IMG/VR virus record: IMGVR_UViG_2531839178_000021 | Coordinates: 1-39,572 of that record | DNA from: a virus | Taxonomy: Duplodnaviria; Heunggongvirae; Uroviricota; Caudoviricetes | Reading direction: 5' to 3' (one strand) | DNA length: 39,572 nt | In this document: positions 2,180 through 24,682 of the stretch, in pieces | How positions within the stretch are numbered: the first letter of the stretch is position 1 | How the letters are laid out: each line of letters starts with the position of its first letter | The notes under the pieces: generated by a model | Databases searched by the model: none | Told to the model about the DNA's origin: nothing | The model's input: only the letters and a program-made list of their open reading frames with translations | Translations under genes and position numbers: made by a program

Positions 2180-2239
2180 GGCTGTGTCCCTTAATCATCT
2201 GAGCTATAGTAACTGTCTGTTTACACAACATATTGAACT

Positions 2240-2689
2240 ATGGCTCGCTACGACCTTCCCGATGAGGCATGGACCATCATCAAGCCCCTGTTACCTCCTG
2301 AACCCGCCACACCACGGGCCGGACGCCCATGGGCTGAGCACCGTAAAATCATCAATGGCATGTTCTGGGTGTTATGTTCCGGTGCACCATGGCGCGATTT
2401 ACCCGAACGATATGGGTCATGGAAAACTGTTTATAACCGCTTTAACCGATGGTCAAAGTCAGGCGTGATTAATATTATTTTCAACAGGTTGCTTTCGCTA
2501 CTTGATGCAAACGGCTTTATTGACTGGTCTGCCACCGCGCTGGATGGCAGTAATATCCGGGCGCTGAAATGTGCCGCCGGTGCTCAAAAAAACATCCCGA
2601 TATCGACGGAGATAATGGGCTGGGTCGCTCTCGCGGCGGTTTTGGCACCAAAATCCATCTGGCAACAGACGGAAGTGGCCTCCCGTTAA
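2240..2689 (+). CDS. IS transposase OrfA (DUF4096-like N-terminal part)
   Basis: MARYDLPDEAWTIIKPLLPPEPATPRAGRPWAEHRKIINGMFWVLCSGAPWRDLPERYGSWKTVYNRFNRW; A7 run at 2586-2592 places OrfB in the -1 frame. Confidence 0.8.
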   Translation: MARYDLPDEAWTIIKPLLPPEPATPRAGRPWAEHRKIINGMFWVLCSGAPWRDLPERYGSWKTVYNRFNRWSKSGVINIIFNRLLSLLDANGFIDWSATALDGSNIRALKCAAGAQKNIPISTEIMGWVALAAVLAPKSIWQQTEVASR

Positions 2690-3084
2690 ATATCGTGCTA
2701 AGCCCCGGACAAGCTCATGAAAGCCAGTTCGCGCAACGACTTCTGGACGGGATTGGCGTTCAGCGTCAGAACGGCAGCATGAAACGCCGTGGACATGCGG
2801 TACTGGCTGATAAAGCGTATTCAGGGCGCGCATTGCGCAACGAGCTGAAAAATAACGGTATAAAGGCAGTAATCCCCCGAAAGTCAAATGAGAAAATGGC
2901 ATCGGATGGACGTGCACAGCTTGATCGTGATGCGTACTGCAATCGTAATGTCGTTGAACGGTGCTTTGGGCGGCTGAAAGAATATCGCCGCATCGCCACG
3001 CGTTACGACAAAACGGCGAGAAATTACCTGGCGATGGTGAAACTGGGCTGCATCCGACTCTTTTATCAACGCTTACGTAATTAA
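2569..3084 (+). CDS. IS transposase OrfB (DDE catalytic part), expressed as OrfAB fusion by -1 frameshift
   Basis: ...ADKAYSGRALRNELKNNGIKAVIPRKSNE...NRNVVERCFGRLKEYRRIATRYDKTARNYL, IS4/IS5-superfamily C-terminal signature. Confidence 0.8.
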   Translation: MCRRCSKKHPDIDGDNGLGRSRGGFGTKIHLATDGSGLPLNIVLSPGQAHESQFAQRLLDGIGVQRQNGSMKRRGHAVLADKAYSGRALRNELKNNGIKAVIPRKSNEKMASDGRAQLDRDAYCNRNVVERCFGRLKEYRRIATRYDKTARNYLAMVKLGCIRLFYQRLRN

Positions 3085-3097
3085 GGGACACAGCCTA

Positions 3098-3295
3098 ACA
3101 GTCAGTCAGCGTCGTACTTTATTTATGCACGCCGGATTGACAGAAAAAGAATTTAATCAGCCATACTGGCGAATTAATGAAGAGTCATGTTACTGGCGTG
3201 ATGCTTTATTCCGTGCATTACGTGAATTATTCAGCCTGTTTGAGTATGCACCGACAATTCTGACGTCGGTAAAACCAGAGCAATATCTGCATTAA
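3098..3295 (+). pseudogene. B: Replication gene B, 3' part (65 codons) downstream of IS
   Basis: in-frame continuation TVSQRRTLFMHAGLTEKEFNQPYWRINEESCYWRDALFRALRELFSLFEYAPTILTSVKPEQYLH, stop 3293-3295. Confidence 0.8.
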
Positions 3296-3358
3296 GTAAT
3301 TAACCAGAGTTTTTAACGCACTTAATTGTGCGGGGCTTCTTTTTGCCTGGAGAAAGTC

Positions 3359-3583
3359 ATGCATACAGTTTCTGAAAATCAGTGCGGTAAATACGCATTA
3401 CTGCTGCAACAGGCCAGAACCGAAGCACAGGCCGACGCGGCGACGCGCTTTTCTTCTCATCTTGACGTCATGATTCGCCACATCACAAAGGCGGAGTTAT
3501 CCCGCGTGGAGATAGTCGAGCTGCTCAGTCAGGAGTCGGAAAAATTTCACAATATCGGATTGTCTCGCGGGGAGGTACTTTGA
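3359..3583 (+). CDS. Small early-operon protein (P2 orf80-like)
   Basis: ATG 3359 with GGAGAAAG upstream; [24 protein letters not shown]. Confidence 0.6.
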
Positions 3584-3882
3584 TGTCCTGCTCTCATTCA
3601 GTTGTATTACTGAATAACGCCTTAAAAATCGCCGTTATGAAAAATGGCGATTTGTCTCTTATTCAACTTTGTCTTGATAAAGAAAAACGCGACATCACTG
3701 AATCTGTTATCGCGATTTATCAGAATGAATTAAACCTCCTGTCTGATGTGGTCAATTTACTTGTTAAACGCGCTGTATTCCACAAGCAAATTTCCTCAGT
3801 GGATGAACTGACAAAATTAACGACAGAACTTGCCAGTTATTGCGCTGATGTATACAGGAAACTTAACGATAAAAGGAGCTGA
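3580..3882 (+). CDS. Small early-operon protein (P2 orf81-like)
   Basis: 100-aa ORF, start overlaps previous stop (ATGA). Confidence 0.6.
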
Positions 3883-3884
3883 TA

Positions 3885-4109
3885 ATGCCGGACAACGTAG
3901 ATTTTATTCAGGAACAACAGGCTGAATTACTGGAGCGCCAGATTAACGCGGCAAGGGTAAAACATTGCGGTGCTTCTGCGCTGGTTTGCGAAGAGTGTGA
4001 CGCGCCAATACCTGCTGCCCGTCGTGCGGCTTATCCGTCAGCCACGCGTTGTGTTTCCTGTCAGTCAGTCTTTGAAGCAAAAAATAAACATTACCGGAGA
4101 ACGGCATGA
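3885..4109 (+). CDS. Small C4 zinc-finger protein (TraR/DksA-like; P2 orf82-like)
   Basis: CEECDAPIPAARRAAYPSATRCVSCQ, a Cx2C..Cx2C motif. Confidence 0.65.
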   Translation: MPDNVDFIQEQQAELLERQINAARVKHCGASALVCEECDAPIPAARRAAYPSATRCVSCQSVFEAKNKHYRRTA

Positions 4110-4381
4110 GTATTCGTATTGAAATTGGCGAACGTTATGTCGTTACCAGTGACAGCTTCCAGTTTATTCTCCACGAGAAAAAGAGAGCGGAAAGCGGTAA
4201 AAACGCCGGTCAGGAATGGCTGGCGGTGGTTGGTTATTACCCGAAATTAAGCCAGCTTGTTTCCGGCCTGATGCATCACGATATTCTGACCGGAAGCGCA
4301 AAGTCTTTTGCTGATTTAAACGCGCAGGTTGAGCAACTCAGCAAGCGTTGTTCAGAGGCTTTTGGCTCATATGGCCGTTAA
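4106..4381 (+). CDS. Small early-operon protein (P2 orf83-like)
   Basis: 91-aa ORF MSIRIEIGERYVVTSDSFQFILHEKKRAESGKNAGQEW; translationally coupled. Confidence 0.6.
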   Translation: MSIRIEIGERYVVTSDSFQFILHEKKRAESGKNAGQEWLAVVGYYPKLSQLVSGLMHHDILTGSAKSFADLNAQVEQLSKRCSEAFGSYGR

Positions 4382-6653
4382 AGCCTCCGGGCGTTTTGTC
4401 CCTCCGTCAGCATTTGCTGCAGGCACCGGTAAGGCGTTTACCGGTGCTTATGCATGGAACGCGCCACGCGAGGCTGTCGGGCGCGAAAGACCCTTTACAC
4501 GTGACGAGATGCGTCAGGTGCAAGGTGTTTTATCCACGATTAACCGCCTGCCTTACTTTTTGCGCTCGCTGTTTACTTCACGCTATGACTACATCCGGCG
4601 CAATAAAAGCCCGGTACACGGGTTTTATTTCCTCACATCCACTTTTCAGCGTCGTTTATGGCCGCGCATTGAGCGTGTGAATCAGCGCCATGAAATGAAC
4701 ACCGACGCGTCGTTGCTGTTTCTGGCAGAGCGTGACCATTATGCGCGCCTGCCGGGAATGAATGACAAGGAGCTGAAAAGGTTTGCCGCCCGTATCTCAT
4801 CGCAGCTTTTCATGATGTATGAGGAACTCTGCGATGCCTGGGTGGATGCGCATGGCGAAAAAGAATCGCTGTTTACGGATGAGGCGCAGGCGCATCTGTA
4901 TGGTCATGTTGCTGGCGCTGCACGTGCTTTCAATATTTCCCCGCTTTACTGGAAAAAATACCGTAAAGGATAGATGACCACGAGGCAGGCATATTCTGCC
5001 ATTGCCCGTCTGTTTAACGATGAGTGGTGGACTCATCAGCTTAAAGGCCAGCGTATGCGCTGGCATGAGGCGTTATTGATAGCTGTCGGGGAGGTCAATA
5101 AAGACCGTTCTCCTTATGCCAGTAAACATGCCATTCGTGATGTGCGTGCGCGCCGTCAGGCAAATCTGGAGTTTCTTAAATCGTGTGACCTTGAAAACAG
5201 GGAAACCGGCGAACGCATCGACCTTATCAGTAAGGTGATGGGCAGTATTTCTAATCCTGAAATTCGCCGGATGGAGCTGATGAACACCATTGCCGGTATT
5301 GAGCGTTACGCCGCCGCAGAGGGTGATGTGGAGATGTTTATCACGCTGACCGCGCCGTCAAAGTATCACCCGACACGTCAGGTCGGAAAAGGCGAAAGTA
5401 AAACCGTCCAGCTTAATCACGGCTGGAATGATGAGGCATTTAATCCGAAGGATGCGCAGCGTTATCTCTGCCGTATCTGGAGCCTGATGCGCACGGCATT
5501 CAAGGATAATGATTTACAGGTCTACGGTTTGCGAGTCGTCGAGCCACACCACGACGGAACGCCGCACTGGCATATGATGCTTTTTTGTAATCCACGCCAG
5601 CGTAACCAGATTATCGAAATCATGCGTCGCTACGCGCTCAAAGAGGATGGCGACGAAAGAGGAGCTGCGCGAAACCGTTTTCAGGCAAAACACCTTAACC
5701 GGGGCGGTGCTGCGGGATATATCGCGAAATACATTTCAAAAAACATCGACGGCTATGCACTGGATGGTCAGCTCGATAACGATACCGGCAGGCCGCTGAA
5801 AGACACCGCCGCGGCTGTTACTGCATGGGCGTCAACGTGGCGCATCCCGCAATTTAAAACGGTTGGCCTGCCGACAATGGGGGCTTACCGTGAACTACGC
5901 AAATTGCCTCGCGGCGTCAGTATTGCTGATGAGTTTGACGAACGCGTCGAGGCTGCACGCGCTGCCGCAGACAGTGGTGATTTTGCGTTGTATATCAGCG
6001 CGCAGGGTGGGGCAAATGTTCCGCGCGATTGTCAGACTGTCAGGGTTGCCCGTAGTCCGTCGGATGAAGTTAACGAGTACGAGGAAGAAGTCGAGAGAGT
6101 GGTCGGCATTTACGCGCCGCATCTCGGCGCGCGTCATATTCATATCACCAGAACGACGGACTGGCGCATTGTTCCGAAAGTGCCGGTCGTTGAGCCTTTG
6201 ACTTTAAAAAGCGGCATCGCCGCGCCTCGGAGTCCTGTCAATAACTGTGGAAAGCTCACCGGTGGTGATACTTCGTTACCGGCTCCCACACCTTCTGAAC
6301 ACGCCGCAGCAGTGCTTAATCTGGTTGATGACGGTGTTATCGAATGGAATGACACGGAGGTCGTGAGGGCGCTCAGGGGCGCATTAAAACACGGCCTGAG
6401 AAGACCAAACCGTCAGCAAAGAAACGGAAGCCCGTTAAAACCGCATGAAATAGCGCCATCGGCCAGACTGACCCGGTCGGAAAGAATGCAAATTACCCGT
6501 ATCCGCGTTGACCTTGCTCAGAACGGTATCAGGCCGCAGCGATGGGAGCTTGAGGCGCTGGCGCGTGGTGCGACCGTAAATTACAACGGGAAAAAATTTA
6601 CGTATCCGGTCGCTGATGAGTGGAGTTGGTTTTATTGTTATTCAGAGCAATAA
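4371..6653 (+). pseudogene. A: Replication initiation protein A (rolling-circle nickase), 761 codons, interrupted by an in-frame TAG at 4971-4973
   Basis: ORFs 4329-4973 and 4974-6653 are in the same frame separated only by TAG; combined span from ATG 4371 matches the recalled 761-aa length of P2 gpA; HUH-like region ..PHWHMMLF.. and GYIAKYISK present. Confidence 0.8.
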
Positions 6654-6769
6654 ACATCTGATTTAATTTGTTGCATAATAGTAAAATTGCTGTTTATCTG
6701 CATGTGTTAACTATTGATAATTATGTTGCTAATAATGTGTGCAAATTTATACTGAAAAAGGTGAAAACG

Positions 6770-6922
6770 ATGAATGATATCTTTGTTCTTACAAGGGAAG
6801 AGCTTGAAACACTAGATTATAGTGTTTTTATGCATATACCAGTTACATTTCATGCACATAAAATAAAAAATATCTGGATGGGATTGCTGAATCATCAGAA
6901 AACCCCAAAGAGAAAAAATTAG
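6770..6922 (+). CDS. Cargo locus ORF segment 1 (frame 2), possibly the N-terminus of one larger gene
   Basis: ATG 6770 with AAGGTG 7 nt upstream; low-GC; frame-1 ORF opens at 6862 overlapping this segment across A6 runs (6865-6870, 6913-6918). Confidence 0.45.
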   Translation: MNDIFVLTREELETLDYSVFMHIPVTFHAHKIKNIWMGLLNHQKTPKRKN

Positions 6923-6936
6923 CATCTCTTTTTGGT

Positions 6937-7242
6937 ATGCTATATAGTTTCAATTTGCAAGTTGTTAACAACACTCCATCATTTGAACCCCAAATGATTT
7001 GGGGTAATAAAAGATCAATATTGCCTGAAGATTTTGATGAGCAGGTGAATGACTGTCTTTTATATGTTTCTCAAAAAATAACCAATCCATTTTTGTTATC
7101 AAGAATATATGATGTTGTTTGGTGTAATAATCGGAAAAATAAAGACGTGGCAATTAAAGCAATTGATTCCTATGCTGAAATGCTAAATATAGCAATTGAA
7201 AAGCTAATAATAAAAACGAAAGCATGGATGAAAGTGATTTAA
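6937..7242 (+). CDS. Cargo locus ORF segment 2 (frame 1), hypothetical
   Basis: 101-aa ORF MLYSFNLQVVNNTPSFEPQMIWGNKRS...; overlaps segment 3 by 19 nt across an A5 run (7212-7216). Confidence 0.45.
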   Translation: MLYSFNLQVVNNTPSFEPQMIWGNKRSILPEDFDEQVNDCLLYVSQKITNPFLLSRIYDVVWCNNRKNKDVAIKAIDSYAEMLNIAIEKLIIKTKAWMKVI

Positions 7243-8600
7243 ATTGCTTTATTTTTGCTCGTGATTATATTGCTAGGGCTTTGCACATTAATAAAATGGT
7301 CTACCCTAGAAAATCAGAAGGAAACATGGCGATTAAAAATGCCATTCATTCTCTTTATAGTATTCAAAATGAAAGATTAATCTTTGAAGGTTTCAATAAT
7401 TTGACTTGGTTTATGGTGCGTGATTTTGATGGGTATAATCTGCAGTATGCGGAAAATGCTGAGAAGATGGCTGAGCAGCATAAAGATAAAAAATATTATG
7501 ATGCTGTAAAATCACTTTATATGACAAGTGCAGTTATTTATGAAAAAAATGGTGAGTATGAACGTGCCAAGAGATGTAAACTGGCATCTGCAAATATTAC
7601 TATTAAAGTTGCAACAGATCGACCTGATAATATGGGTAAGATCTCTTGGTTAAGAACAGCTATCTCTGAATTAAGACAGTACGGTGGTGATAGCCAACAG
7701 ATAGAAGATTTAAAGGAACAACTTGCTAATTTGAGAGAAGAAGTAAGGAGTGAATATGTCACTTTAAGCCATTCTATTGATATTAGTGACTTGGTTGCTG
7801 AAAGTGAAAAAAAACTGACGGGGCGTTCTTTGCCCGATATATTCAAAGTTTTAATGCGTGAAACACCGATTGAAAATATTGAAAGCATGAGGGAACAAGT
7901 TTTAAGATTATCAGAAAAAAGTTTATTCTCTAGTTTTGTTGGAACAGAAATTAATGATGAGAGTGGGCGTAAGATATATACAATCCCGCCGTTGGATAAT
8001 AAAAAAGATATGAGTGATGATGTTGTTATTGATCAATATCTAAGAAATTTCGAGATTACTCATAAGATTTTTGTAAACGGTGTCTTTGAACCTGCTCGCT
8101 ATGTACTTTCTCAAGAACATGGCTTGACGTTGTCAACATTCGTTAAATTGGTTACAACTAGTCCAATTGTCAAGCCGGAGTTTAGGGAGATTTTTAATTT
8201 GGGCTTTTACAAATTATGGCAGGGAGATTACATCAGTGCAGCTTATCTTTTAATACCACAAATGGAGGGTATGGTTCGTTATTATTATGAGCTTAGTGGA
8301 AAGGATGCTACTAGATATTTGGATAAGGGATTAGAGGAGTCAACAAGTATTTCTCAGCTTCTAGATAAATGCAGAGATGATTTGGAAAGTATCTTTTCTA
8401 AAAATCTTGTTTTGACTATCGATGTTCTTTTTAACAGAAAGAGTGGGGCAACCTTAAGACATAAATTAGCACATGGTAATTTATATACTAATGCTTGTTA
8501 CGATGAAACAACGACATATGCATGCATCCTGATTTTCTTTCTGTGTGCTTATCCTCTCCTACCATATTTTGATACTGTTTTTGAACAGGGCTCTGTTTGA
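7224..8600 (+). CDS. Cargo protein, 458 aa, unknown function with C-terminal HEPN-like R-x4-H motif; candidate abortive-infection/defence effector
   Basis: low-GC ORF; motif RHKLAHG encoded at 8457-8477; coiled-coil-like EDLKEQLANLREEVRSEY; no Walker A, so not an Old-type ATPase. Confidence 0.6.
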   Translation: MDESDLNCFIFARDYIARALHINKMVYPRKSEGNMAIKNAIHSLYSIQNERLIFEGFNNLTWFMVRDFDGYNLQYAENAEKMAEQHKDKKYYDAVKSLYMTSAVIYEKNGEYERAKRCKLASANITIKVATDRPDNMGKISWLRTAISELRQYGGDSQQIEDLKEQLANLREEVRSEYVTLSHSIDISDLVAESEKKLTGRSLPDIFKVLMRETPIENIESMREQVLRLSEKSLFSSFVGTEINDESGRKIYTIPPLDNKKDMSDDVVIDQYLRNFEITHKIFVNGVFEPARYVLSQEHGLTLSTFVKLVTTSPIVKPEFREIFNLGFYKLWQGDYISAAYLLIPQMEGMVRYYYELSGKDATRYLDKGLEESTSISQLLDKCRDDLESIFSKNLVLTIDVLFNRKSGATLRHKLAHGNLYTNACYDETTTYACILIFFLCAYPLLPYFDTVFEQGSV

Positions 8601-8751
8601 TAACGTATACGTTGAGGCATAAAACCTATGCATACTTAGCTGCATCAATTTGCACGAGGTATTTCAGTATGCATTTTCTGCGTAATAGTAGGGATTGCTT
8701 GGTTTGGTAGTTGTAATTCAACTGCATTCAAACCGACCCATGAAGCGGGCG

Positions 8752-8770
8752 GGCGAGGCGGGGAAAGCAC
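8752..8770. other. cos: cos site (19-nt cohesive end sequence of P2-type phages)
   Basis: GGCGAGGCGGGGAAAGCAC matches the recalled P2 cohesive end; located between the A-side cargo and Q as expected. Confidence 0.7.
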
Positions 8771-8912
8771 TGCGCGCTGGCGGTGGTGCTGATTTTATTT
8801 TTTCAGCGTCTCAGCGCGTCGTGACGGCGCTTAGTCTGCCCGTTGGGGTGTTGGTGTGTCTGCGGGCTGTTTTGTGCTGTGGTGAGCGTGTGAGGGCGTG
8901 ATGACGGGATGT

Positions 8913-8934
8913 AAAAAAGCCGCCCGCAGGCGGC
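8913..8934 (-). terminator. Rho-independent terminator downstream of Q
   Basis: minus strand GCCGCC-tgcg-GGCGGC followed by TTTTTT. Confidence 0.6.
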
Positions 8935-8939
8935 GATGT

Positions 8940-9929
8940 TCAGCCGTTGTCAGTGTCCAGTGAGTAGTTTTTAAAGCGGATGACCTCCTGACCGAGCCAG
9001 CCGTTTATCTCGCGGATCCTGTCCTGTAACGGGATAAGCTCATTGCGGACAAAGACCTTTGCCACTTTCTCAATATCACCCAGCGACCCGACGTTCTCCG
9101 GCTTGCCGCCCATCAACTGAAAGGGGATGCGGTGCGCGTCAAGCAGGTCAGCGGCGCTGGCTTTTTTGATATTAAAAAAATCGTCCTTCGTTGCCACTTC
9201 ACTGAGCGGGATAATTTTAATGCCGTCGGCTTTTCCCTGTGGGGCATAGAGAAACAGGTTTTTAAAGTTGTTGCGGCCTTTCGACTTCACCATGTTTTCG
9301 CGAAGCGTTTCGATATCGTTGCGATCCTGCACGGCATCAGTGACGTACATGATATATCCGGCATGAGCGCCGTTTTCGTAATACTTGCGGCGGAACAGCG
9401 TGGCCGACTCATTCAGCCAGGCAGAATTAAGGGCGCTGAGATATTCCGGCAGACCGTACAGCTCCTGATTAATATCCGGCTCCAGCAGGTGAAACACGGA
9501 TCCGGGCGCGAAGGCTGTCGGCTCGTTAAAGGACGGCACCCACCAGTAAACATCCTCCTCCACGCCACGGCGGGTATATTTTGCCGGTGAGGTTTCCAGT
9601 CTGATGACCTTACCGGTGGTGCTGTAACGCTTTTCCAGAAACGCATTACCGAACACCAGAAAATCCAGCACAAAGCGGCTGAAATCCTGCTGGGACAGCC
9701 ACGGGTGCGGGATAAACGTTGAAGCCAGAATATTACGTTTGACGTAAATCGGTGAGCTGTGATGCACGGCAGCACGCAGGCTTTTTGCCAGACCGGTAAA
9801 GCTGATTGGTGGCTCATACCATCTGCTGTTACTGATGCATTCGACGTAATCCAGAATGTCACGGTGGTCGAGTACCGGCACCGGCTCACCAAAGGTGAAT
9901 ACCTCCATTTTCGGGGCGCTGGCGGTCAT
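8940..9929 (-). CDS. Q: Portal protein Q; N-terminus frame-broken (probable true start ATG at 9973)
   Basis: 329-aa ORF MTASAPKMEVFTFGEPVPVLDHRDILDYVECISNSRWYEPP; upstream ATG at 9973-9971 with GGAG 8 nt upstream, out of frame by one base across a 5-nt homopolymer (plus-strand T-run 9960-9964). Confidence 0.85.
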   Translation of the reverse strand: MTASAPKMEVFTFGEPVPVLDHRDILDYVECISNSRWYEPPISFTGLAKSLRAAVHHSSPIYVKRNILASTFIPHPWLSQQDFSRFVLDFLVFGNAFLEKRYSTTGKVIRLETSPAKYTRRGVEEDVYWWVPSFNEPTAFAPGSVFHLLEPDINQELYGLPEYLSALNSAWLNESATLFRRKYYENGAHAGYIMYVTDAVQDRNDIETLRENMVKSKGRNNFKNLFLYAPQGKADGIKIIPLSEVATKDDFFNIKKASAADLLDAHRIPFQLMGGKPENVGSLGDIEKVAKVFVRNELIPLQDRIREINGWLGQEVIRFKNYSLDTDNG

Positions 9930-10034
9930 TGTTTTTGCCGCAGGTTGCGGTGTTTTCCCTTTTTCTTGCTCATCAGTAAAACTCCAGAATGGTGGATGTC
10001 AGCGGAGTGCTGATACCGGCGGTGAGTGGCTCAT

Positions 10035-11744: not shown

Positions 11745-11917
11745 GAATACCTCGCCGTGATGAATACACGGCAAGGCTACTGAGTCGCGCCCCGCGATTC
11801 GCTAAGGTGCTGTTGTGTCAGTGATAAGCCATCCGGGACTGATGGCGGAGGATGCGCATCGTCGGGAAACTGATGCCGACATGTGACTCCTCTAATCACT
11901 ATTCAGGACTCCTGACA

Positions 11918-15640: not shown

Positions 15641-15643
15641 CGC

Positions 15644-16422: not shown

Positions 16423-16436
16423 ACGGAGTAAACACC

Positions 16437-16862: not shown

Positions 16863-17275
16863 TGATTGTACTGATTGTGTTGTTATCGCTGGCGGTGGCG
16901 GGTCTGTTTCTGGTGAAACACAAAAATGCCAGCCTGCGCGCTTCGCTGGACAGGGCGAACAGCGTCGCCAGCGGGCAGCAGACGACCATCACCATGCTGA
17001 AAAATCAGCTTCATGTTGCGCTCACCAGGGCAGAAAAAAACGAGCTGGCGCAGGTGGCACTGCGTCAGGAACTGGAAAACGCCGCGAAGCGTGAAGCACA
17101 GCGCGAGAAAACCATCACGAGGTTACTCAATGAAAACGAAGATTTTCGCCGCTGGTACGGTGCTGACCTGCCTGATGCTGTGCGCCGGTTGCACCAGCGT
17201 CCGGCCTGCACCGACGCCAGTGATTGTCGCCAACGCCTGCCCGAAAGTGAGTCTTTGCCCGATGCCGGGCAGTGA
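16850..17275 (+). CDS. lysB: LysB (Rz-like inner-membrane spanin)
   Basis: N-terminal TM MSRLMIVLIVLLSLAVAGLFLV followed by coiled-coil region. Confidence 0.75.
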   Translation: MSRLMIVLIVLLSLAVAGLFLVKHKNASLRASLDRANSVASGQQTTITMLKNQLHVALTRAEKNELAQVALRQELENAAKREAQREKTITRLLNENEDFRRWYGADLPDAVRRLHQRPACTDASDCRQRLPESESLPDAGQ

Positions 17276-17420
17276 CCCGCAGACGAACGGCGATTTAAGT
17301 GCTGATATCAGGCAGCTTGAGAACGCGCTGGCACGCTGTGCCAGCCAGGTAAAAATGATTAAACACTGTCAGGACGAAAACGATGCTCAAACCCGACAGC
17401 CTGTGCAGGGCGTTGACTGA
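17130..17420 (+). CDS. lysC: LysC (Rz1-like outer-membrane lipoprotein spanin), overlapping lysB in another frame
   Basis: MKTKIFAAGTVLTCLMLCAGC lipoprotein signal with lipobox; Pro-rich mature part. Confidence 0.7.
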   Translation: MKTKIFAAGTVLTCLMLCAGCTSVRPAPTPVIVANACPKVSLCPMPGSDPQTNGDLSADIRQLENALARCASQVKMIKHCQDENDAQTRQPVQGVD

Positions 17421-17850
17421 TGCCGTCACGGTGCTGAAAACTAACCCCGATATGCTGCGGATATTCGTGGATAACGGGAGTATTGCCTCCACACTGGCGA
17501 CGTCGCTGTCGTTCGAAAAGCGTTACACGCTCAATGTGATTGTGACCGACTTTACCGGTGATTTTGACCTGCTCATCGTGCCGGTGCTGGCGTGGCTGCG
17601 GGAAAATCAGCCCGACATCATGACCACCGACGAAGGCCAGAAAAAGGGCTTCACGTTTTATGCAGACATCAACAATGACAGCAGCTTTGATATAAGCATC
17701 AGCCTGATGCTGACCGAGCGCACGCTGGTCAGTGAGGTGGACGGCGCGCTGCATGTGAAGAATATCCCTGAACCTCCGCCGCCGGAGCCGGTTACCCGCC
17801 CGGTGGAGCTTTATATCAATGGCGAACTGGTGAGCAAGTGGGATGAATGA
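17383..17850 (+). CDS. R: Tail completion protein R
   Basis: 155-aa ORF MLKPDSLCRALTDAVTVLKTNPDMLRIFVDNGSIAS. Confidence 0.8.
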   Translation: MLKPDSLCRALTDAVTVLKTNPDMLRIFVDNGSIASTLATSLSFEKRYTLNVIVTDFTGDFDLLIVPVLAWLRENQPDIMTTDEGQKKGFTFYADINNDSSFDISISLMLTERTLVSEVDGALHVKNIPEPPPPEPVTRPVELYINGELVSKWDE

Positions 17851-18294
17851 GTTTAAGCGTTTTGAAGACCGGCTGGCCGGACTGACTGAATCGCTGTCAC
17901 CGTCAGGGCGTCGGCGACTGAGCGCCGAACTGGCGAAACGTCTGCGTCAGAGTCAGCAGCGTCGGGTGATGGCACAGAAAGCCCCGGACGGCACACCCTA
18001 CGCGCCACGTCAGCAGCAGAGCGCCAGAAAAAGACCGGTCGCGTTAAGCGAAAAATGTTTGCGAAACTTATCACCAGTCGTTTTTTGCATATCCGCGCCA
18101 GCCCGGAACAGGCATCAATGGAGTTTTACGGCGGGAAGTCACCGAAAATCGCCAGTGTGCATCAGTTCGGTCTGTCGGAAGAAAACCGGAAAGACGGTAA
18201 GAAAATTGATTATCCGGCGCGTCCTCTGCTCGGCTTTACCGGTGAGGATGTGCAGATGATTGAAGAGATTATCCTGGCTCACCTGAATCGTTAG
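17843..18294 (+). pseudogene. S: Tail completion protein S, frame-broken at an A5 run (18028-18032)
   Basis: ORF 17843-18259 (MNEFKRFEDRLAGLTESLSPSGRRRLSAELAKRLRQSQQ...SARK) shifts to ORF 18055-18294 (MFAKLITSRFLHIRASPEQ...ILAHLNR) by a 1-nt deletion-type break. Confidence 0.75.
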
Positions 18295-18497
18295 CTTTAA
18301 TCATCTGAGAATATAAGATAGAAATCAATTGATTAGCATAATTTATTTTGAATTTTCATGTTAATAAATAAAAGGCCAGTTATTGGCCTTTTATCATTAC
18401 TTTCCATTTTTTAATGAATTGATTAACGATGCTATTTGCTCAATGCCATCAAATGTAGATGGTATCTTATCATCGGATAGCATGATGTTTGAAAATA

Positions 18498-18815
18498 CTA
18501 CGTCTTCGAATTTTGAAAGCGCTTCCGGATTGTTTTTCTTATCTCTGAGGAATAGTCGCTATAACTCTGAATGAACTGACAAAGGCTCTTTTTGAGTTCT
18601 ATTTGCATAATCTGAGTTCGTAACGATATATGATTTAGCAGTACAACTCTAAAGTAATACATGAAAATCAATGTAACTGATGCAAAAGGTAGTGCTGACA
18701 TAAAATATGTGGCAGCATTTGTCGTTTCGAGAGCTGGTAATTTATGCATTCCATAGTATATCAGCGGGGAGGGAATGATTATAGCCAAGATGATAAGAAT
18801 TATTCTTGATAGCAT
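18498..18815 (-). CDS. Small membrane protein (two predicted TM helices), cargo, unknown function
   Basis: 105-aa low-GC ORF MLSRIILIILAIIIPSPLIYYGM...ATYFMSALPFASVTLIFMYYFRVVLL; downstream of and co-oriented with the 18902-19468 gene. Confidence 0.55.
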   Translation of the reverse strand: MLSRIILIILAIIIPSPLIYYGMHKLPALETTNAATYFMSALPFASVTLIFMYYFRVVLLNHISLRTQIMQIELKKSLCQFIQSYSDYSSEIRKTIRKRFQNSKT

Positions 18816-18901
18816 GATTGCACTTTCTTTTTTTTGCCAAGTGAATTAAAGCCTTCAAACAATCCAACAAAATTAAATGCGACCTCATACCCTTTTAATG
18901 A

Positions 18902-19468
18902 CTATTTGATTGACTCTATTTTGGTATGTTGCTCCTTTAAGAAGGAGTCGCACTTTTCGAAAAATTGACGCCCTTCGTTTAAACTATCAATGTATTTTTT
19001 ATATGTGTCAACATTGCTGGAGCTTAAAACTTCTTTAACCATTGCTAATGGCAGTTCTCTAAGAGAAAAGTCTATCTGTGCTCTGCTCCGCTCATCGAAT
19101 TCATTATAGTTATACAGAGCAAAATCCTTGATGGTTCTTAGTGGTGAAAAGTGAGACTCTATTTCCGGAGAGAGAATGCTTGGTTCAATGATAAATCTAA
19201 AAAAGCAAGTGAATATAAGGTTGATGCTGTTGTTATCTTCTCCCTTTTCTCTTAAGAAACTTTTAAAGGTGTCGCCAATCATAGCAATGTTGTGCTGGGA
19301 TTTTTTGTCCCAATCTTCAGGGTTTTCGGAAATGAAGTTTATTGCTTGAGCAATTATTTTGTTTCTGTTTGATTCAAAGTTTGTGCCGGGAGTCAGCGTG
19401 TTCAAAAAGACCAGATAATCTTTGAACAATTCTTTCATTGTTTCTGACGAGAAAAAGTAAGTACTCAT
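18902..19468 (-). CDS. Hypothetical cargo protein (~188 aa), unknown function
   Basis: low-GC ORF on the strand opposite to the tail genes, inserted between S and V; start taken at ATG 19468 (MSTYFFSSETMKELF); the longer ORF to 19564 uses GTG and overlaps the V start. Confidence 0.5.
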   Translation of the reverse strand: MSTYFFSSETMKELFKDYLVFLNTLTPGTNFESNRNKIIAQAINFISENPEDWDKKSQHNIAMIGDTFKSFLREKGEDNNSINLIFTCFFRFIIEPSILSPEIESHFSPLRTIKDFALYNYNEFDERSRAQIDFSLRELPLAMVKEVLSSSNVDTYKKYIDSLNEGRQFFEKCDSFLKEQHTKIESIK

Positions 19469-19554
19469 AATGGATTTTGTTGTCCCTTGTTGTTCTGTGC
19501 ACCAGAAATCGTGGTGTGATTTACTTCGAGATTGTACAGAATCATTATTATCGA

Positions 19555-20184
19555 ATGAATGCACAATACAATGAAATTCTTCGCTTTATACGCAATATGA
19601 TTCGCACTGGCATTATTGTCGAAACCGACCTTAATGCCGGTCGCTGCCGTGTGCAGACCGGCGGCATGTGCACCGACTGGCTTCAGTGGCTGACCCATCG
19701 CGCCGGACGTTCGCGCACATGGTGGGCACCTTCCGTGGGGGAACAGGTGCTGATTCTGGCCGTGGGCGGTGAACTCGACACGGCGTTCGTTCTGCCGGGG
19801 ATTTATTCCTGCGATAACCCCGCGCCGTCTGCGTCGGCGGATGCCCTGCATATCCGTTTCCCTGACGGGGCGGTGATTGAGTATGAACCCGAAACCAGTG
19901 CACTCACGGTAAGCGGAATTAAAACGGCCAGCGTGACGGCTTCTGATTCTGTTACTGCCACGGTGCCGGTGGTCATGGTGAAAGCGTCAACCCGCATCAC
20001 CCTGGACACCCCGGAGGTGGTCTGCACCAACAGACTGATTACCGGCACGCTGGAAGTGCAGAAGGGCGGGACGATGCGCGGCAACATTAAACATACCGGC
20101 GGTGAACTCTCATCAAACGGTAAGGTACTGCATACCCATAAACACCCCAGCGACAGCGGCGGCACAACCGGGAGTCCTCTATGA
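19555..20184 (+). CDS. V: Baseplate spike protein V
   Basis: MNAQYNEILRFIRNMIRTGIIVETDLNAGRCRVQTGGMCTDWLQWL. Confidence 0.85.
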   Translation: MNAQYNEILRFIRNMIRTGIIVETDLNAGRCRVQTGGMCTDWLQWLTHRAGRSRTWWAPSVGEQVLILAVGGELDTAFVLPGIYSCDNPAPSASADALHIRFPDGAVIEYEPETSALTVSGIKTASVTASDSVTATVPVVMVKASTRITLDTPEVVCTNRLITGTLEVQKGGTMRGNIKHTGGELSSNGKVLHTHKHPSDSGGTTGSPL

Positions 20185-20528
20185 CAGCGCGTTATCTTGG
20201 AATGAATCGCAGTGATGGCCTGACGGTCACTGACCTTGAGCATATCAGCCAGAGTATCGGCGATATCCTGCGCACACCGGTCGGCTCACGGGTGATGCGT
20301 CGTGATTACGGCTCGTTGCTGGCGTCAATGATTGACCAGCCGCAGACCCCGGCGCTTGAGTTGCAGATTAAGGTCGCCTGTTACATGGCGGTGCTGAAAT
20401 GGGAACCCCGCGTCACCCTGTCATCCGTCACCACGGCGCGCAGCTTTGATGGGCGAATGACGGTCACGTTAACCGGCCAGCACAACGACACCGGCCAGCC
20501 ACTTTCGTTAACCATCCCTGTGAGTTGA
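20181..20528 (+). CDS. W: Baseplate protein W
   Basis: 115-aa ORF MTARYLGMNRSDGLTVTDLEHISQSIGDILRTPVGSRVMRRDYGS. Confidence 0.85.
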   Translation: MTARYLGMNRSDGLTVTDLEHISQSIGDILRTPVGSRVMRRDYGSLLASMIDQPQTPALELQIKVACYMAVLKWEPRVTLSSVTTARSFDGRMTVTLTGQHNDTGQPLSLTIPVS

Positions 20529-20532
20529 AACC

Positions 20533-21441
20533 ATGCCGATTATCGACCTGAACCAGCTACCCGCACCGGATGTGGTCGAGGAGCTGGACTTTGAAACCAT
20601 TCTCGCCGAACGCAAGGCGACACTGATTTCCCTTTACCCGGAAGACCAGCAGGAGGCGGTCGCCCGTCCCCTGACGCTGGAATCTGAGCCTCTCGTCAAA
20701 CTGCTGGAGGAAAATGCTTATCGTGAGCTTATCTGGCGTCAGCGTGTGAATGAGGCCGCACGGGCGGTGATGCTGGCCTGTGCCGCCGGTAATGACCTTG
20801 ATGTGATTGGTGCCAATTACAACACCACGCGTCTGACTATCACCCCGGCAGATGATTCGACTATCCCGCCGACACCGGCAGTGATGGAGTCTGACACGGA
20901 TTATCGTCTGCGTATTCAGCAGGCGTTTGAAGGCTTAAGCGTCGCCGGGTCGGTGGGAGCCTATCAGTATCATGGTCGCAGTGCTGACGGGCGTGTCGCG
21001 GATATCTCTGTCACCAGTCCGTCTCCGGCCTGCGTCACTATCTCCGTGCTGTCACGTGAAAATAACGGCGTCGCATCCGAAGACCTGCTGGCCGTGGTGC
21101 GTAACGCCCTTAATGGCGAGGACGTCAGGCCGGTGGCCGACCGCGTGACCGTGCAGTCTGCCGCCATTGTTGAATATCAGATAAACGCCACACTTTACCT
21201 TTACCCAGGTCCCGAAAGCGAACCCATCCGCGCTGCTGCCGTGAAAAAACTGGAAGCGTACATCACGGCACAGCACCGGCTGGGGCGTGACATCCGTCTG
21301 TCTGCCATTTATGCCGCTTTGCATGTGGAAGGCGTGCAGCGTGTCGAACTGACTGCACCGCTGGCTGACATCGTGCTCAACAGTACGCAGGCGTCTTTCT
21401 GTACTGAATACCGCGTCGTGACCGGAGGCTCGGATGAGTGA
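20533..21441 (+). CDS. J: Baseplate protein J
   Basis: 302-aa ORF MPIIDLNQLPAPDVVEELDFETILAERKATLISLYPEDQQ. Confidence 0.85.
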   Translation: MPIIDLNQLPAPDVVEELDFETILAERKATLISLYPEDQQEAVARPLTLESEPLVKLLEENAYRELIWRQRVNEAARAVMLACAAGNDLDVIGANYNTTRLTITPADDSTIPPTPAVMESDTDYRLRIQQAFEGLSVAGSVGAYQYHGRSADGRVADISVTSPSPACVTISVLSRENNGVASEDLLAVVRNALNGEDVRPVADRVTVQSAAIVEYQINATLYLYPGPESEPIRAAAVKKLEAYITAQHRLGRDIRLSAIYAALHVEGVQRVELTAPLADIVLNSTQASFCTEYRVVTGGSDE

Positions 21442-21964
21442 TTCGCGACTGCTGCCGACCGGCTCATCACCGCTTGAAGTCGCCGCCGCAAAAGCCTGTG
21501 CGGAAATTGAAAAAACACCGGTCAGTATTCGTGAGCTGTGGAACCCGGACACCTGCCCGGCAAATCTGCTGCCGTGGCTGGCGTGGGCGTTTTCGGTCGA
21601 CAGGTGGGATGAAAAGTGGCCGGAAGCGACCAAACGCGCCGTTATTCGCGATGCCTATTTCATCCACTGTCATAAAGGCACTATAGGTGCAATCCGGCGT
21701 GTGGTGGAGCCGCTAGGCTATCTCATCAACGTGACGGAGTGGTGGGAAACCAGTGACCCGCCGGGCACCTTCCGGCTTGATATTGGTGTACTGGAAAGTG
21801 GCATCACAGAGGCAATGTATCAGGAAATGGAACGGCTGATTGCTGATGCCAAACCTGCAAGCCGCCACCTTATTGGCCTGAACATTACCCGGGACATTCC
21901 CGGCTACCTGTTCGCCGGTGGTGTGGCTTATGACGGCGATGTAATTACGGTTTACCCCGGATAA
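21434..21964 (+). CDS. I: Baseplate protein I
   Basis: 176-aa ORF, start overlaps J stop. Confidence 0.8.
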   Translation: MSDSRLLPTGSSPLEVAAAKACAEIEKTPVSIRELWNPDTCPANLLPWLAWAFSVDRWDEKWPEATKRAVIRDAYFIHCHKGTIGAIRRVVEPLGYLINVTEWWETSDPPGTFRLDIGVLESGITEAMYQEMERLIADAKPASRHLIGLNITRDIPGYLFAGGVAYDGDVITVYPG

Positions 21965-22496
21965 GTGAGGAATAATGAGCACAAAATTCAGAACCGTTAT
22001 CACCACTGCCGGTGCAGCAAAGCTGGCAGCGGCAACCGCACCGGGAGGGCGGAAGGTCAACATTACCACGATGGCCGTCGGGGATGGCGGTGGTAAATTG
22101 CCTGTCCCGGATGCCGGACAGACCGGGCTTATCCATGAAGTCTGGCGACATGCGCTGAACAAAATCAGCCAGGACAAACGAAACAGTAATTATATTATCG
22201 CAGAGCTGGTTATTCCGCCGGAGGTGGGCGGTTTCTGGATGCGTGAGCTTGGCCTGTACGATGATGCGGGAACGTTAATTGCCGTGGCGAACATGGCCGA
22301 AAGTTATAAGCCAGCTCTTGCCGAAGGCTCAGGGCGTTCGCAGACCTGCCGTATGGTCATCATCGTCAGCAGTGTGGCCTCAGTGGAGCTGACCATTGAC
22401 ACCACAACGGTGATGGCGACGCAGGATTACGTTGATGACAAAATTGCAGAGCACGAACAGTCACGACGTCACCCGGACGCCTCGCTGACCGCAAAA

Positions 22497-22860
22497 GGTT
22501 TTACTCAGTTAAGCAGTGCGACCAACAGCATGTCTGAAACACTGGCTGCAACGCCGAGAGCGGTAAAGACCGCCTATGACCTTGCTAACGGGAAATATAC
22601 CGCGCAGGATGCCACCACCGCGCGAAAAGGCCTTGTTCAGCTCAGTAGTGCGACTAACAGCACGTCTGAAACGCTCGCCGCAACGCCGAAAGCGGTAAAG
22701 GCAGCATATGACCTTGCTAACGGGAAATACACTGCACAGGATGCCACAACAGCGCGAAAAGGCCTTGTTCAGCTCAGTAGCGCCACCAACAGTGATTCTG
22801 AAACGCAGGCTGCAACGCCAAAGGCGGTGAAGTCTGCCTATGACAATGCTGAAAAACGTC
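22497..22860 (+). repeat. Tandem 132-bp (44-codon) coding repeat, ~2.75 copies, inside tail fibre gene H
   Basis: units starting 22497, 22629, 22761: LSSATNS-SETLAATPKAVKAAYDLANGKYTAQDATTARKGLVQ. Confidence 0.8.
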
Positions 22861-22931
22861 TTCAGAAAGATCAGAACGGTGCGGATATCCCTGATAAAGA
22901 ACGCTTCCTGAGTAACATTAGGCTGTGTCCC

Positions 22932-23444
22932 TTAATTACGTAAGCGTTGATAAAAGAGTCGGATGCAGCCCAGTTTCACCATCGCCAGGTAATTTCTCGC
23001 CGTTTTGTCGTAACGCGTGGCGATGCGGCGATATTCTTTCAGCCGCCCAAAGCACCGTTCAACGACATTACGATTGCAGTACGCATCACGATCAAGCTGT
23101 GCACGTCCATCCGATGCCATTTTCTCATTTGACTTTCGGGGGATTACTGCCTTTATACCGTTATTTTTCAGCTCGTTGCGCAATGCGCGCCCTGAATACG
23201 CTTTATCAGCCAGTACCGCATGTCCACGGCGTTTCATGCTGCCGTTCTGACGCTGAACGCCAATCCCGTCCAGAAGTCGTTGCGCGAACTGGCTTTCATG
23301 AGCTTGTCCGGGGCTTAGCACGATATTTAACGGGAGGCCACTTCCGTCTGTTGCCAGATGGATTTTGGTGCCAAAACCGCCGCGAGAGCGACCCAGCCCA
23401 TTATCTCCGTCGATATCGGGATGTTTTTTGAGCACCGGCGGCAC
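22932..23444 (-). CDS. IS transposase OrfB (copy 2)
   Basis: same protein as 2569-3084 apart from the N-terminal residues at the A-run. Confidence 0.75.
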   Translation of the reverse strand: MPPVLKKHPDIDGDNGLGRSRGGFGTKIHLATDGSGLPLNIVLSPGQAHESQFAQRLLDGIGVQRQNGSMKRRGHAVLADKAYSGRALRNELKNNGIKAVIPRKSNEKMASDGRAQLDRDAYCNRNVVERCFGRLKEYRRIATRYDKTARNYLAMVKLGCIRLFYQRLRN

Positions 23445-23775
23445 ATTTCAGCGCCCGGATATTACTGCCATCCAGCGCGGTGGCAGACCAGTCAATAAAG
23501 CCGTTTGCATCAAGTAGCGAAAGCAACCTGTTGAAAATAATATTAATCACGCCTGACTTTGACCATCGGTTAAAGCGGTTATAAACAGTTTTCCATGACC
23601 CATATCGTTCGGGTAAATCGCGCCATGGTGCACCGGAACATAACACCCAGAACATGCCATTGATGATTTTACGGTGCTCAGCCCATGGGCGTCCGGCCCG
23701 TGGTGTGGCGGGTTCAGGAGGTAACAGGGGCTTGATGATGGTCCATGCCTCATCGGGAAGGTCGTAGCGAGCCAT
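23401..23775 (-). CDS. IS transposase OrfA (copy 2); with A6 the OrfB frame is +1 rather than -1
   Basis: MARYDLPDEAWTIIKPLLPP...AQKTSRYRRR stop. Confidence 0.7.
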   Translation of the reverse strand: MARYDLPDEAWTIIKPLLPPEPATPRAGRPWAEHRKIINGMFWVLCSGAPWRDLPERYGSWKTVYNRFNRWSKSGVINIIFNRLLSLLDANGFIDWSATALDGSNIRALKCAAGAQKTSRYRRR

Positions 23776-24682
23776 AGTTCAATATGTTGTGTAAACAGAC
23801 AGTTACTATAGCTCAGATGATTAAGGGACACAGCCTAGTGTTTTTTATGTTGAAGCCAGAGCTTTCCCTGTACAAATTCTTGCAGAGGAAGGGCTAACGG
23901 TTATTGTTCCGACAGAGGATTATGTCGTCGGTCAAACGACATATAAGTGGGGGGCAACTAATCCCGCTACAGAAAGCACGAACGCACAGGCTATTCTGGA
24001 TTTTAAAAATGGACGTGGTTATTACTGTTCACATCCATTTATTTCCAGCCTTTCAGGAAATGCTGCAACAGCAACGAAGTTAGCGAACGCAAGAAATATT
24101 AATGGTGTCAGATTTGATGGCTCTGCCGATATAAATATTAATACACTGGTATCCAGAAACCGTGTTACTGCATTAGGTGGGAGCGTAAAGGGGACACCAG
24201 GTATTCAGATGTATGAGGCATACAACAATGGCTACCCAACAGCCTATGGTAATGTGCTTCATCTCACTGGCGTAACCGCAGTAGGAGAGGGTGAGTTACT
24301 TATTGGTTGGAGTGGAACCAGCGGTGCTCATGCTCCGGCATATATTCGTTCCCGACGAGATACCACAGATGCTAACTGGTCTGGATGGGCGCAACTATAT
24401 ACAACTGCTCATAAACCCTCAGCGGGAGATGTTGGTGCATACACCAAAACTGAGTCAGATTCACGTTATGTGAGAGACATGCGGCTGGGCGGTGCATCTA
24501 CATATAAACCAGCAAATAATGGTACTACATGGACGCATCAGGCTCCGTCAGGTTGCGTATATACCGGCATTATTGTTCAGGATACCGGCTCAAACTCTGC
24601 CGATAACATTGGTGGCGTATATTACAGACCGGTGCAGAAATACATTAACGGGACATGGTATAACGTGGTGCAGGTATAATTT

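Follow-up and report, generated by a model that had tools for sequence, protein, structure and literature searches.

Insertion sequences (IS) of the IS427 group, within the IS5 family, are about 830-865 bp long, and have 2-bp direct repeats, a conserved frameshift motif and two overlapping ORFs (PMC3281130). In this group the DDE is complete only after fusion of the two products, and the trans-frame protein has not been reported experimentally (PMC3281130). An IS with this layout, assigned to the group by architecture only, is found twice in the window, which is the whole stretch of 39,572 nucleotides that was analysed. The window matches AKNA01000058.1, a contig of the Shigella boydii 965-58 draft, with 100% identity and holds a P2-like prophage located at the yegQ-yegR locus of this strain. 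The two copies are located as follows.

IS copy 1: 2180..3095, plus strand, 916 bp, in P2 gene B
IS copy 2: 22921..23835, minus strand, 915 bp, inverted relative to copy 1, in P2 tail-fibre gene H

By its sequence, the element is an already known Shigella insertion sequence. Its recoding architecture is established too, as are rearrangements bounded by IS copies in Shigella, and nothing here is new. Over the whole 916 bp it has 99-100% nucleotide identity to many copies from Shigella, EIEC and E. coli, which are annotated as IS5 family, ISSfl7, ISSfl1 or IS1650. Copy 1 is 99.5-99.9% identical to copies labelled ISSfl1 ORF1/ORF2, 'IS5-like element ISSfl7 family transposase' or IS1650 orfA. The name ISSfl1 belongs to pCP301, IS1650 to the M90T virulence plasmid (pWR100/M90T), and 'IS5-like element ISSfl7 family' is the name given by NCBI. 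The exact OrfA protein of copy 1 is known as the 'ISSfl1 ORF1 / IS1650 orfA' type. Copy 1 has the same OrfA (149 aa) and OrfB products, the same ends and the same run of seven A residues (A7) as the ISSfl1/IS1650/ISSfl7 family, without differences, whereas the recoding run of copy 2 is one A shorter (A6). The elements of the two copies are listed below.

TA target-site duplication of copy 1: left 2178..2179, right 3096-3097, no strand, 2 bp
OrfA of copy 1: 2240..2689, plus strand, 149 aa, with the DUF4096 N-terminal domain and the first catalytic-region motif ALDGSN
A7 run of copy 1: 2586..2592, plus strand, heptamer A_AAA_AAC in the OrfA frame (CA_A AAA AAC, 2585-2593)
OrfB frame of copy 1: 2590..3084, plus strand, -1 relative to OrfA
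OrfA as read in copy 2: 23401..23775, minus strand, 124 aa, C-terminus ...AQKTSRYRRR
A6 run of copy 2: 23424..23429, minus strand (T6 on the plus strand), one base below the family norm
OrfB frame of copy 2: 22932..23444, minus strand, +1 relative to copy 2 OrfA

The conceptual OrfAB fusion (281 aa) matches NF033580 (transpos_IS5_3) over profile positions 2-257 of 258 with a score of 319.1 bits, the curated NCBIfam cutoff being 110 bits, and this bears out membership of the IS5 family. The fusion also matches Pfam DUF4096 plus DDE_Tnp_1, and 281-aa proteins named 'IS5 family transposase' are present in databases. It is useful to compare the element with IS1248, ISPpa2 and ISPaes1 of Paracoccus, members of the IS427 group which likewise have short IRs, a 2-bp repeat, overlapping ORFs and a frameshift motif. 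The length of 916 bp and the perfect terminal IRs of 16 bp (GGCTGTGTCCCTTAAT) agree with the size of about 0.8-1.0 kb and the short IRs of the group, although the Paracoccus members are smaller (832-865 bp). Copy 1 has the TA-type 2-bp duplication and the overlapping ORFs with a -1 motif. Copy 2 as assembled departs from the latter arrangement, its OrfB being in the +1 frame.

The surroundings of the two copies are those of phage P2.

P2-like gene B, 5' part: 1877..2179, plus strand; the 3' part is at 3098-3295
Bracketed segment: 3096..22920, no strand, B' - A - cargo - cos - Q P O - IS4 - N ... V W J I - H'
P2 cos 19-mer GGCGAGGCGGGGAAAGCAC: 8752..8770, plus strand, exact match, inside the bracketed segment
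P2-like tail-fibre gene H, 5' part: 21975..22920, plus strand, EIQ29176.1
Gene H, 3' part: 23838..24679, plus strand, in frame with the 5' part

The product of the B junction, EIQ29148.1, is annotated as 'replication gene B domain protein [Shigella boydii 965-58]'. At the site of copy 1, P2 contains one TA only, TTTTT[TA]ACAGTC (P2 26759-26760), and in the alignment window position 2179 corresponds to P2 26760 and position 3096 to P2 26759. Copy 2 also has TA on both sides, but the sequences flanking it are not adjacent to each other in intact H genes: in comparison with E. coli 120899, 328 nt of H are gone at this site. Copy 2, as its flanks indicate, is not a simple insertion. The H genes of P2, P22H1 and several other loci diverge at the insertion point.

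The two copies differ at a single site. An inverted-repeat search gave two pairs of arms, 2178-2591 with 23424-23837 (414 nt) and 2587-3098 with 22918-23429 (512 nt), each with 100% complementarity. Their overlap is 5 nt long in copy 1 and 6 nt long in copy 2, so that the copies differ in length by one nucleotide, located within the A run. Direct comparison gives the same result: the sole difference is GCTCAAAAAAACATC in copy 1 against GCTCAAAAAACATCC in copy 2, that is A7 against A6, and all downstream sequence is identical. A match of 915/916 over 916 bp cannot be due to chance. The first-pass annotation had described two inverted copies of one IS5-family element about 20 kb apart, with outer ends at 2180 and 23835, an A7 run at 2586-2592 and A6 in the second copy; the repeat search and the direct comparison agree with this description, and its coordinates are exact. 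The distance between the copies is 19,825 bp. The P2 alignment and the position of the cos 19-mer confirm in addition that the pair brackets B through H, including cos.

The consequence of the difference for the reading frames is also as had been proposed. In copy 1 the codon CAT of OrfB is at offset 2 mod 3 relative to the OrfA ATG at 2240, i.e. in the -1 frame; in copy 2 it is at offset 1 mod 3 relative to the OrfA ATG, i.e. in the +1 frame.

Recoding by -1 on A-rich runs is known in other IS elements, with A6C in IS1 and A_AAA_AAG in the IS3 family, and transcriptional slippage on A runs is known as well. As in the IS1 and IS3-family cases, the A run is located here at the OrfA/OrfB overlap with OrfB at -1, and A_AAA_AAC has the form of a slippery heptamer X_XXY_YYZ in the upstream frame. 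Of 75 relatives with 77-94% nucleotide identity, which belong to at least 10 genera (Symbiopectobacterium, Klebsiella, Phytobacter, Enterobacter, Mixta, Photorhabdus, Erwinia, Brenneria and others), 70 keep the run CAAAAAAAC, although the flanking codons vary. All 20 near-identical Shigella copies have A7. Ten of these are in the complete genomes CP026824 and CP026875, and the other ten in the draft GCA_000211935.2, which contains nine full-length copies, eight identical to copy 1 and one with one mismatch, plus one 5'-truncated copy. PGAP labels a 921-nt A7 match 'programmed frameshift'. Judging from these copies, A7 is the norm of the family.

The transposase would be made only as an OrfA-OrfB fusion, for which a -1 frame change on CAAAAAAAC would be needed. 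This change could be brought about by ribosomal slippage on A_AAA_AAC or by RNA polymerase adding one A. Since the fusion needs a -1 change on a conserved run, A7 would be the functional state. In contrast to IS1 and IS3-family recoding, no downstream hairpin or pseudoknot is detectable, and the heptamer ends with C, not G. Folding of 2580-2700 gave no improvement over shuffled sequences (z = -0.21), and for 14 diverse relatives RNAalifold yielded a weak consensus (-12.6 kcal/mol, 2 compensatory pairs, almost no covariation). An upstream GGNGC was considered as an SD-like element and rejected, as it is explained by Gly-Ala coding and is variable. A ribosomal frameshift is not specifically supported over transcriptional slippage, because no downstream stimulatory structure was found in these folds; recoding would proceed by one or the other.

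It is important to consider the A6 run of copy 2 together with the other homopolymers of the assembly. The same B::IS and H::IS junctions are present in independent assemblies (Logan ERR200314, SRR11791543, SRR8186692 and SRR8186674; NCBI GCA_013436735.1). Compared with these over about 29 kb, the window has seven 1-nt homopolymer contractions, at 6865, 7212, 9960, 18028, 18533, 18828 and 31088, while no expansions, and no substitutions relative to the closest relatives, were found in the same 29 kb. Thus, 7 of the 51 homopolymer runs of at least 6 (about 14%) are one base short. The contractions disrupt genes which are intact in relatives, namely S, an orf30-like gene, the portal gene Q and a 610-aa DUF7380 gene. 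Other repeated elements of the same contig behave in a similar way: the members of the IS630-like pair are distinguished by T5/T4 and by one further base at the repeat boundary, and in the IS4 pair the only difference is TTTCCC/TTCCCC.

Early pyrosequencing-type drafts likewise have -1 errors only, in runs of at least 5 only, without substitutions and with a frequency rising with run length. Calls that are unstable between assemblies and boundary shifts of the TTTCCC/TTCCCC kind are also shared with such drafts. The draft of strain 965-58 is presumably from a pyrosequencing-type platform, as its error pattern suggests. The assembly of SRR059778, apparently from the same strain, agrees with the window at every compared position except 18533, where it has T6 and the window T5, so that the base call of this run is unstable. 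A mutator strain as the source of the seven contractions was considered and rejected as unlikely because no substitutions accompany them. Lineages deficient in mismatch repair accumulate more substitutions than indels.

This error pattern allows us to propose, on statistical grounds and with good confidence, that the A6 run is most likely a homopolymer under-call. With long homopolymers under-called systematically by one base, both copies are probably A7 and identical. The one-base difference between the copies is then an ordinary finding. The first-pass annotation had left a choice between a defective copy and a homopolymer miscall; the shortened runs of the source assembly favour the miscall.

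A real A6 would leave copy 2 unable to produce a transposase of its own, although with its intact ends it could still be moved in trans. According to this alternative, one A was lost from copy 2 by replication slippage after both copies arose, and the copy became non-autonomous and trans-mobilisable. This is unlikely. Variation in run length does exist in nature. A6, A7 and A8 all occur among the relatives, an OrfA ending in ...AQKTSRYRRR is found in E. coli O157:H7 (13 contigs from several sources), S. flexneri 3a and one Logan short-read contig, and one Erwinia tracheiphila copy has A6, so that A6-type alleles come from independent sources. A homopolymer polymorphism of this lineage at 7807, A8 against A7 among short-read assemblies, is also genuine. 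In addition, the SRR059778 assembly shares with the window 3 of 4 tested contractions. If these are accurate-platform data of the same strain, those three contractions would be real and the strain truly prone to homopolymer contraction. The history of copy 2, with its deletion in H, is moreover more complicated than that of copy 1.

However, the remaining 915 nt of the two copies contain no other difference, and A6 is rare, with 1 of 75 relatives and none of the 20 near-identical copies having it. The exact 124-aa A6 product is otherwise found only in an early draft of S. boydii ATCC 9905, at least four times. Seven private contractions with zero substitutions also fit under-calling and not mutation. 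Among PLSDB plasmids the exact A6 86-mer is absent and the exact A7 87-mer is present in 8; CP102113, CP102201, CP102205 and CP102208 resemble A6 with one mismatch, in identity bands which poorly separate a gap from a mismatch. A 129-aa OrfB sub-ORF was rejected as a marker for A6 copies, being an annotation habit seen in A7 copies too.

The occurrence of A6, A7 and A8 among relatives, with A6 recurring in separate lineages, could also be read as the mark of a contingency tract, the length of which reversibly toggles copies between a transposase-competent A7 state and silent A6/A8 states, the pair being a snapshot of the switch. This is extremely improbable. Length variants amount to only 3 of 75 relatives, evidence for reversibility or for selection for switching is lacking, and the single case in the window is better explained by sequencing error. 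The under-call is retained here as the preferred reading of copy 2.

The prophage that contains the two copies is P2-like (Peduovirus), with 96-99% identity to P2, collinear blocks from int to ogr/attP and the exact cos 19-mer. It is already dead: int is truncated, A contains a nonsense codon, M-L-X are deleted, N carries an IS4, and genes B and H are disrupted. On either side of each IS copy, all blocks homologous to P2 are collinear, on the plus strand and in P2 order, and the order within the bracketed segment matches P2-like phages, at one place and on one strand. By this collinearity, the segment between the copies is in the ancestral P2 orientation. The TA duplications were considered as a test of past inversion and set aside as uninformative, since both copies are flanked by TA on both sides; P2 collinearity was used instead.

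Perfect inverted repeats of 0.9 kb located 19.8 kb apart are an adequate substrate for RecA, and IS-bounded rearrangements are common in Shigella. The two repeats would permit a RecA-dependent inversion of the 19.8-kb segment, and such recombination between the IS copies is plausible. Like IS-bounded Shigella inversions, the locus has identical inverted IS copies around about 20 kb; in contrast to them, the segment is ancestral and inversion was not observed. A stronger proposal, that both orientations of the prophage segment coexist in the population and that the assembled order is one isomer, can draw on the same quality of the repeats and the same frequency of rearrangements in Shigella, and yet we give it hardly any weight. 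Only the ancestral P2-like orientation is seen. The B::IS and H::IS insertions occur in none of the 5,426 complete E. coli genomes searched, and exact-protein look-ups returned them only from the source draft and from short-read contigs ending at the IS ends, so that a second isomer is not observable in these collections. No function would depend on the orientation, as the prophage is inactivated in several ways. In a prophage that is already dead, inversion would be neutral and without consequence for the biology of the phage.

Taken as a whole, the locus is best described as a known IS present in two inverted copies in a decayed P2-like prophage, with an A6 run that is most likely a non-biological under-call. 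The value of this case is as a caution on the draft assembly. Homopolymers that are one base short, about 1 in 7 of the runs of at least 6, produce apparent frameshifts in the IS, in a candidate defence gene and in S and Q of the phage, and calls of pseudogenes and of a 'defective IS copy' from this record are not to be trusted without accurate reads. The biological weight is small. It is very unlikely that the A7 run is truly hypermutable, with A6/A8 changes repeatedly switching copies off and on in nature, maybe reversibly. If this were true, the A7/A6 pair would represent real copy-by-copy control of transposase supply in Shigella.

The two inverted copies of the IS interrupt the P2-like prophage genes B (copy 1) and H (copy 2), at a distance of 19,825 bp from each other. 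A repeat search of the window returned two pairs of inverted arms, 2178-2591 with 23424-23837 and 2587-3098 with 22918-23429, each 100% complementary; the arms overlap by 5 nt in one IS copy and by 6 nt in the other. With the flanking TA/TAA common to both copies trimmed off, the elements and their A runs, located at the overlap of the frames OrfA and OrfB, are the following.

The two IS copies and their A runs
2180-3095, + strand: IS copy 1, 916 bp
22921-23835, - strand: IS copy 2, 915 bp
2586-2592, + strand: A7 run of copy 1
23424-23429, - strand: A6 run of copy 2 (T6 on the + strand)

The sole difference found by base-by-base comparison is GCTCAAAAAAAC in copy 1 versus GCTCAAAAAAC in copy 2. 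OrfA of copy 1 starts at 2240. Relative to this start, the CAT codon at 2593, which comes first in the OrfB frame past the run, is offset by 2 mod 3 (-1 frame), while the same codon in copy 2 is offset by 1 mod 3 (+1 frame). The first-pass annotation had described an inverted pair about 20 kb apart with A7 versus A6 and with OrfB in these two frames, and the description is exact, coordinates included.

Many elements in Shigella virulence plasmids, in EIEC and in some E. coli share 99-100% identity with copy 1; they are named 'ISSfl1 ORF1/ORF2' (pCP301), 'IS1650 orfA' (S. flexneri M90T) and 'IS5-like element ISSfl7 family transposase'. Shifting by -1 within the run gives a conceptual OrfA-OrfB fusion that consists of 281 amino acid residues and contains the Pfam domains DUF4096 and DDE_Tnp_1. 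Its match to the NCBIfam model NF033580 (IS5 family) is full-length and reaches 319 bits, the cutoff being 110 bits, in agreement with the earlier assignment to this family. One A7 copy is annotated by NCBI as a two-piece CDS with 'programmed frameshift'. The termini of the IS are 16-bp perfect inverted repeats, and copy 1 duplicated a single TA in P2 gene B, P2 26759-26760 being found on both sides. Elements of the IS427 group of the IS5 family are small, with short inverted repeats, a 2-bp duplication, an overlapping ORF pair and a conserved frameshift motif; their DDE triad is complete only in the fusion, and the paper that describes these traits also notes that the group's trans-frame product had not been demonstrated by experiment (PMC3281130). 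The window element is alike in size, inverted repeats, 2-bp duplication, ORFs, motif and DDE triad in the fusion, which is a likeness by architecture. Neither the element nor its architecture or potential for rearrangement is new.

Read in frame with OrfA, the run is CA_A AAA AAC, which conforms to the canonical heptamer X_XXY_YYZ; CAGAAGAAC would be a synonymous mutant that breaks the run. Eighty relatives of the fusion protein were fetched from species-representative genomes, and 75 copies were alignable at the run, with 77-94% nucleotide identity (Symbiopectobacterium, Klebsiella, Phytobacter, Enterobacter, Mixta, Photorhabdus, Erwinia, Brenneria and others). The form CAAAAAAAC is present in 70 of these 75, and the adjacent codons are variable; other states are A6 (one copy), A8 (two) and an interrupted run (one). 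A7 is also the state of all 20 copies in another S. boydii-type draft (ten, nine full-length and one truncated) and in two complete Shigella genomes (ten). Because of its conservation in both sets, A7 is read as the selected, functional state.

No stimulatory structure was found downstream of the run: a 121-nt fold does not surpass shuffled sequences (z = -0.21), and 14 diverse relatives give a weak consensus fold almost without covariation. The frames may be joined either by ribosomal -1 frameshifting or by RNA-polymerase slippage adding one A; these results favor neither route. An A6 run unites the frames by neither a -1 ribosomal shift nor a transcript slip of +1 nt, so that a real A6 copy could not supply transposase.

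The window has 100% identity with contig AKNA01000058.1, and the junction proteins identify the strain as Shigella boydii 965-58. Exact-protein look-ups found the same B::IS and H::IS junctions in the Logan assemblies ERR200314, SRR11791543, SRR8186692, SRR8186674 and ERR6005806 and in the NCBI draft GCA_013436735.1; the junctions in common make these independent assemblies clonal relatives. The complete-genome collections searched contained no comparator with these insertions, and the IS is too long for short reads to span. Over the intervals compared (3070-12873, 14245-22946, 31018-39572 and 1-2204, about 29 kb in total), the window differs from its closest relatives by no substitutions, no expansions and seven single-base deletions, all in homopolymers.

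Homopolymer contractions in the window relative to its closest relatives
6865: A7 to A6
7212: A6 to A5
9960: T6 to T5
18028: A6 to A5
18533: T6 to T5
18828: T9 to T8
31088: A8 to A7

Seven of the relatives' 51 runs of six or more bases in these intervals (14%) are therefore one base short in the window. Four genes that are whole in the relatives are broken by the contractions: S (150 aa, in fragments in the window), an orf30-like gene (188 aa, reduced to 178), portal Q (344 aa, reduced to 329) and a DUF7380 gene (610 aa, split into 101 + 458). Systematic under-calling in the S. boydii 965-58 draft probably accounts for the seven contractions. In contrast, single-base deletions relative to P2 at 10111 in P and 32734 in FII are common to the relatives and hence are real decay, so the comparison is able to distinguish the two classes of deletion. 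Differences at homopolymers also separate the two copies of IS4 and of the IS630-like element on this contig.

The assembly of SRR059778 equals the window at every position compared, including three of four disputed runs; the exception is 18533, with T6 versus T5 in the window. The simplest reading is that it comes from the strain itself, sequenced on a platform that leaves homopolymer lengths ambiguous. If these are accurate-platform data, the three contractions would be genuine, a point in favor of a real mutation in copy 2. That alternative is also kept alive by A6-type OrfA sequences in E. coli O157:H7 (13 contigs, several sources), S. flexneri 3a and one short-read Logan contig, by one Erwinia copy with A6, and by an A8/A7 difference at 7807 that is a real polymorphism between short-read assemblies of the same lineage. 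The chance of an under-call for any given A7 run in this record is roughly 10-15%, and a real A6 allele occurs in about 1% of copies elsewhere. Taken together, these rates make it most likely that the A6 of copy 2 is an under-call or assembly artefact. The first-pass annotation had offered a defective copy or a homopolymer miscall; this hedge was right, and the contractions favor the miscall.

The exact A6-type OrfA product is otherwise found in only one other early draft, S. boydii ATCC 9905 (AERN01), in which A6 is present in four or more copies of this IS. Further OrfA variants in that draft (123-aa and 127-aa products) diverge exactly at the A run, which suggests the same sort of homopolymer or assembly noise. 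Shigella plasmid copies in PLSDB (CP102113.1, CP102201.1, CP102205.1 and CP102208.1) align ungapped to the A6 86-mer with one mismatch; these are possibly A6-type alleles, real or platform-related, from one accession series. If the A6 of copy 2 were real, this copy would be without its own transposase supply, its ends still intact.

The order of the prophage is int, C, cox, B, A, cos, Q, P, O, N ... V, W, J, I, H, G ... FI, then D, ogr and attR, with yegQ adjacent. All P2-homologous blocks flanking both IS copies lie on one strand and in P2 order, so the bracketed segment is in the ancestral orientation in this assembly. The exact cos 19-mer is at 8752, between the copies, and the pair does bracket B through H including cos, as noted earlier. 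The flanks of copy 2 (22920/23836) are 328 nt apart in the closest intact H genes (E. coli 120899, in frame). Since these 328 nt are gone, copy 2 is not a clean insertion: a deletion in H accompanied or followed its arrival, and its target duplication is putative. In addition to the interruption of B and H, the following lesions are present.

Decay of the prophage
Left window edge: int, truncated by an IS630-like element
4971-4973: in-frame stop in replication gene A, common to relatives
10111: 1-nt deletion in terminase P, common to clonal relatives
12846-14271: IS4, 1426 bp, in capsid gene N, with a 13-bp target duplication (P2 4082-4094)
15560-15565: deletion of P2 5376-6631 (M', L, X'), common to clonal relatives
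32734: 1-nt deletion in FII, common to clonal relatives

Other elements were also observed. A second IS4 copy lies on the same contig about 0.5 kb past the right window end and differs from the N copy only by TTTCCC/TTCCCC. Two IS630-family copies, at 29881-31047 and on the contig directly left of window position 22, differ by T5/T4 at 30241 and by one base at the repeat boundary; the transposase is split (about 246-249 + 84 aa) in both, and the left copy cuts off the C-terminus of the P2 integrase. The DUF7380 gene (6770-8600) is cargo in the P2 tin/old hotspot; its PADLOC match is PDC-S39, a candidate defence family (Pfam DUF7380). The gene is whole (610 aa) in ERR200314 and E. coli Ecol_867 and split at the 7807 polymorphism in other relatives. 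A second cargo region, 28117-29816, is located between G and FI (P2 Z/fun hotspot). The N-terminal part of its 250-aa protein (29064-29816, - strand) matches PADLOC PDC-M68A and HNH/SAVED-type endonuclease effectors, and a 261-aa ORF (28117-28902) adjoins this protein; a further IS4-family transposase (26571-27794, - strand, 407 aa, NF033591) lies in the same intergenic region. The tail-fibre gene H contains at 22493-22756 a tandem 132-nt repeat, in which two units are 84% identical and a third has diverged further. The repeated motif that it encodes is 'GLVQLSSATNS.SET.AATPKAVK.AYDLANGKYTAQDATTARK', and the number of units differs in relatives.

The prophage is dead several times over. Inverted repeats of 0.9 kb that are identical and lie 20 kb apart could recombine with each other; an inversion, if it occurs, would be neutral in this dead prophage.
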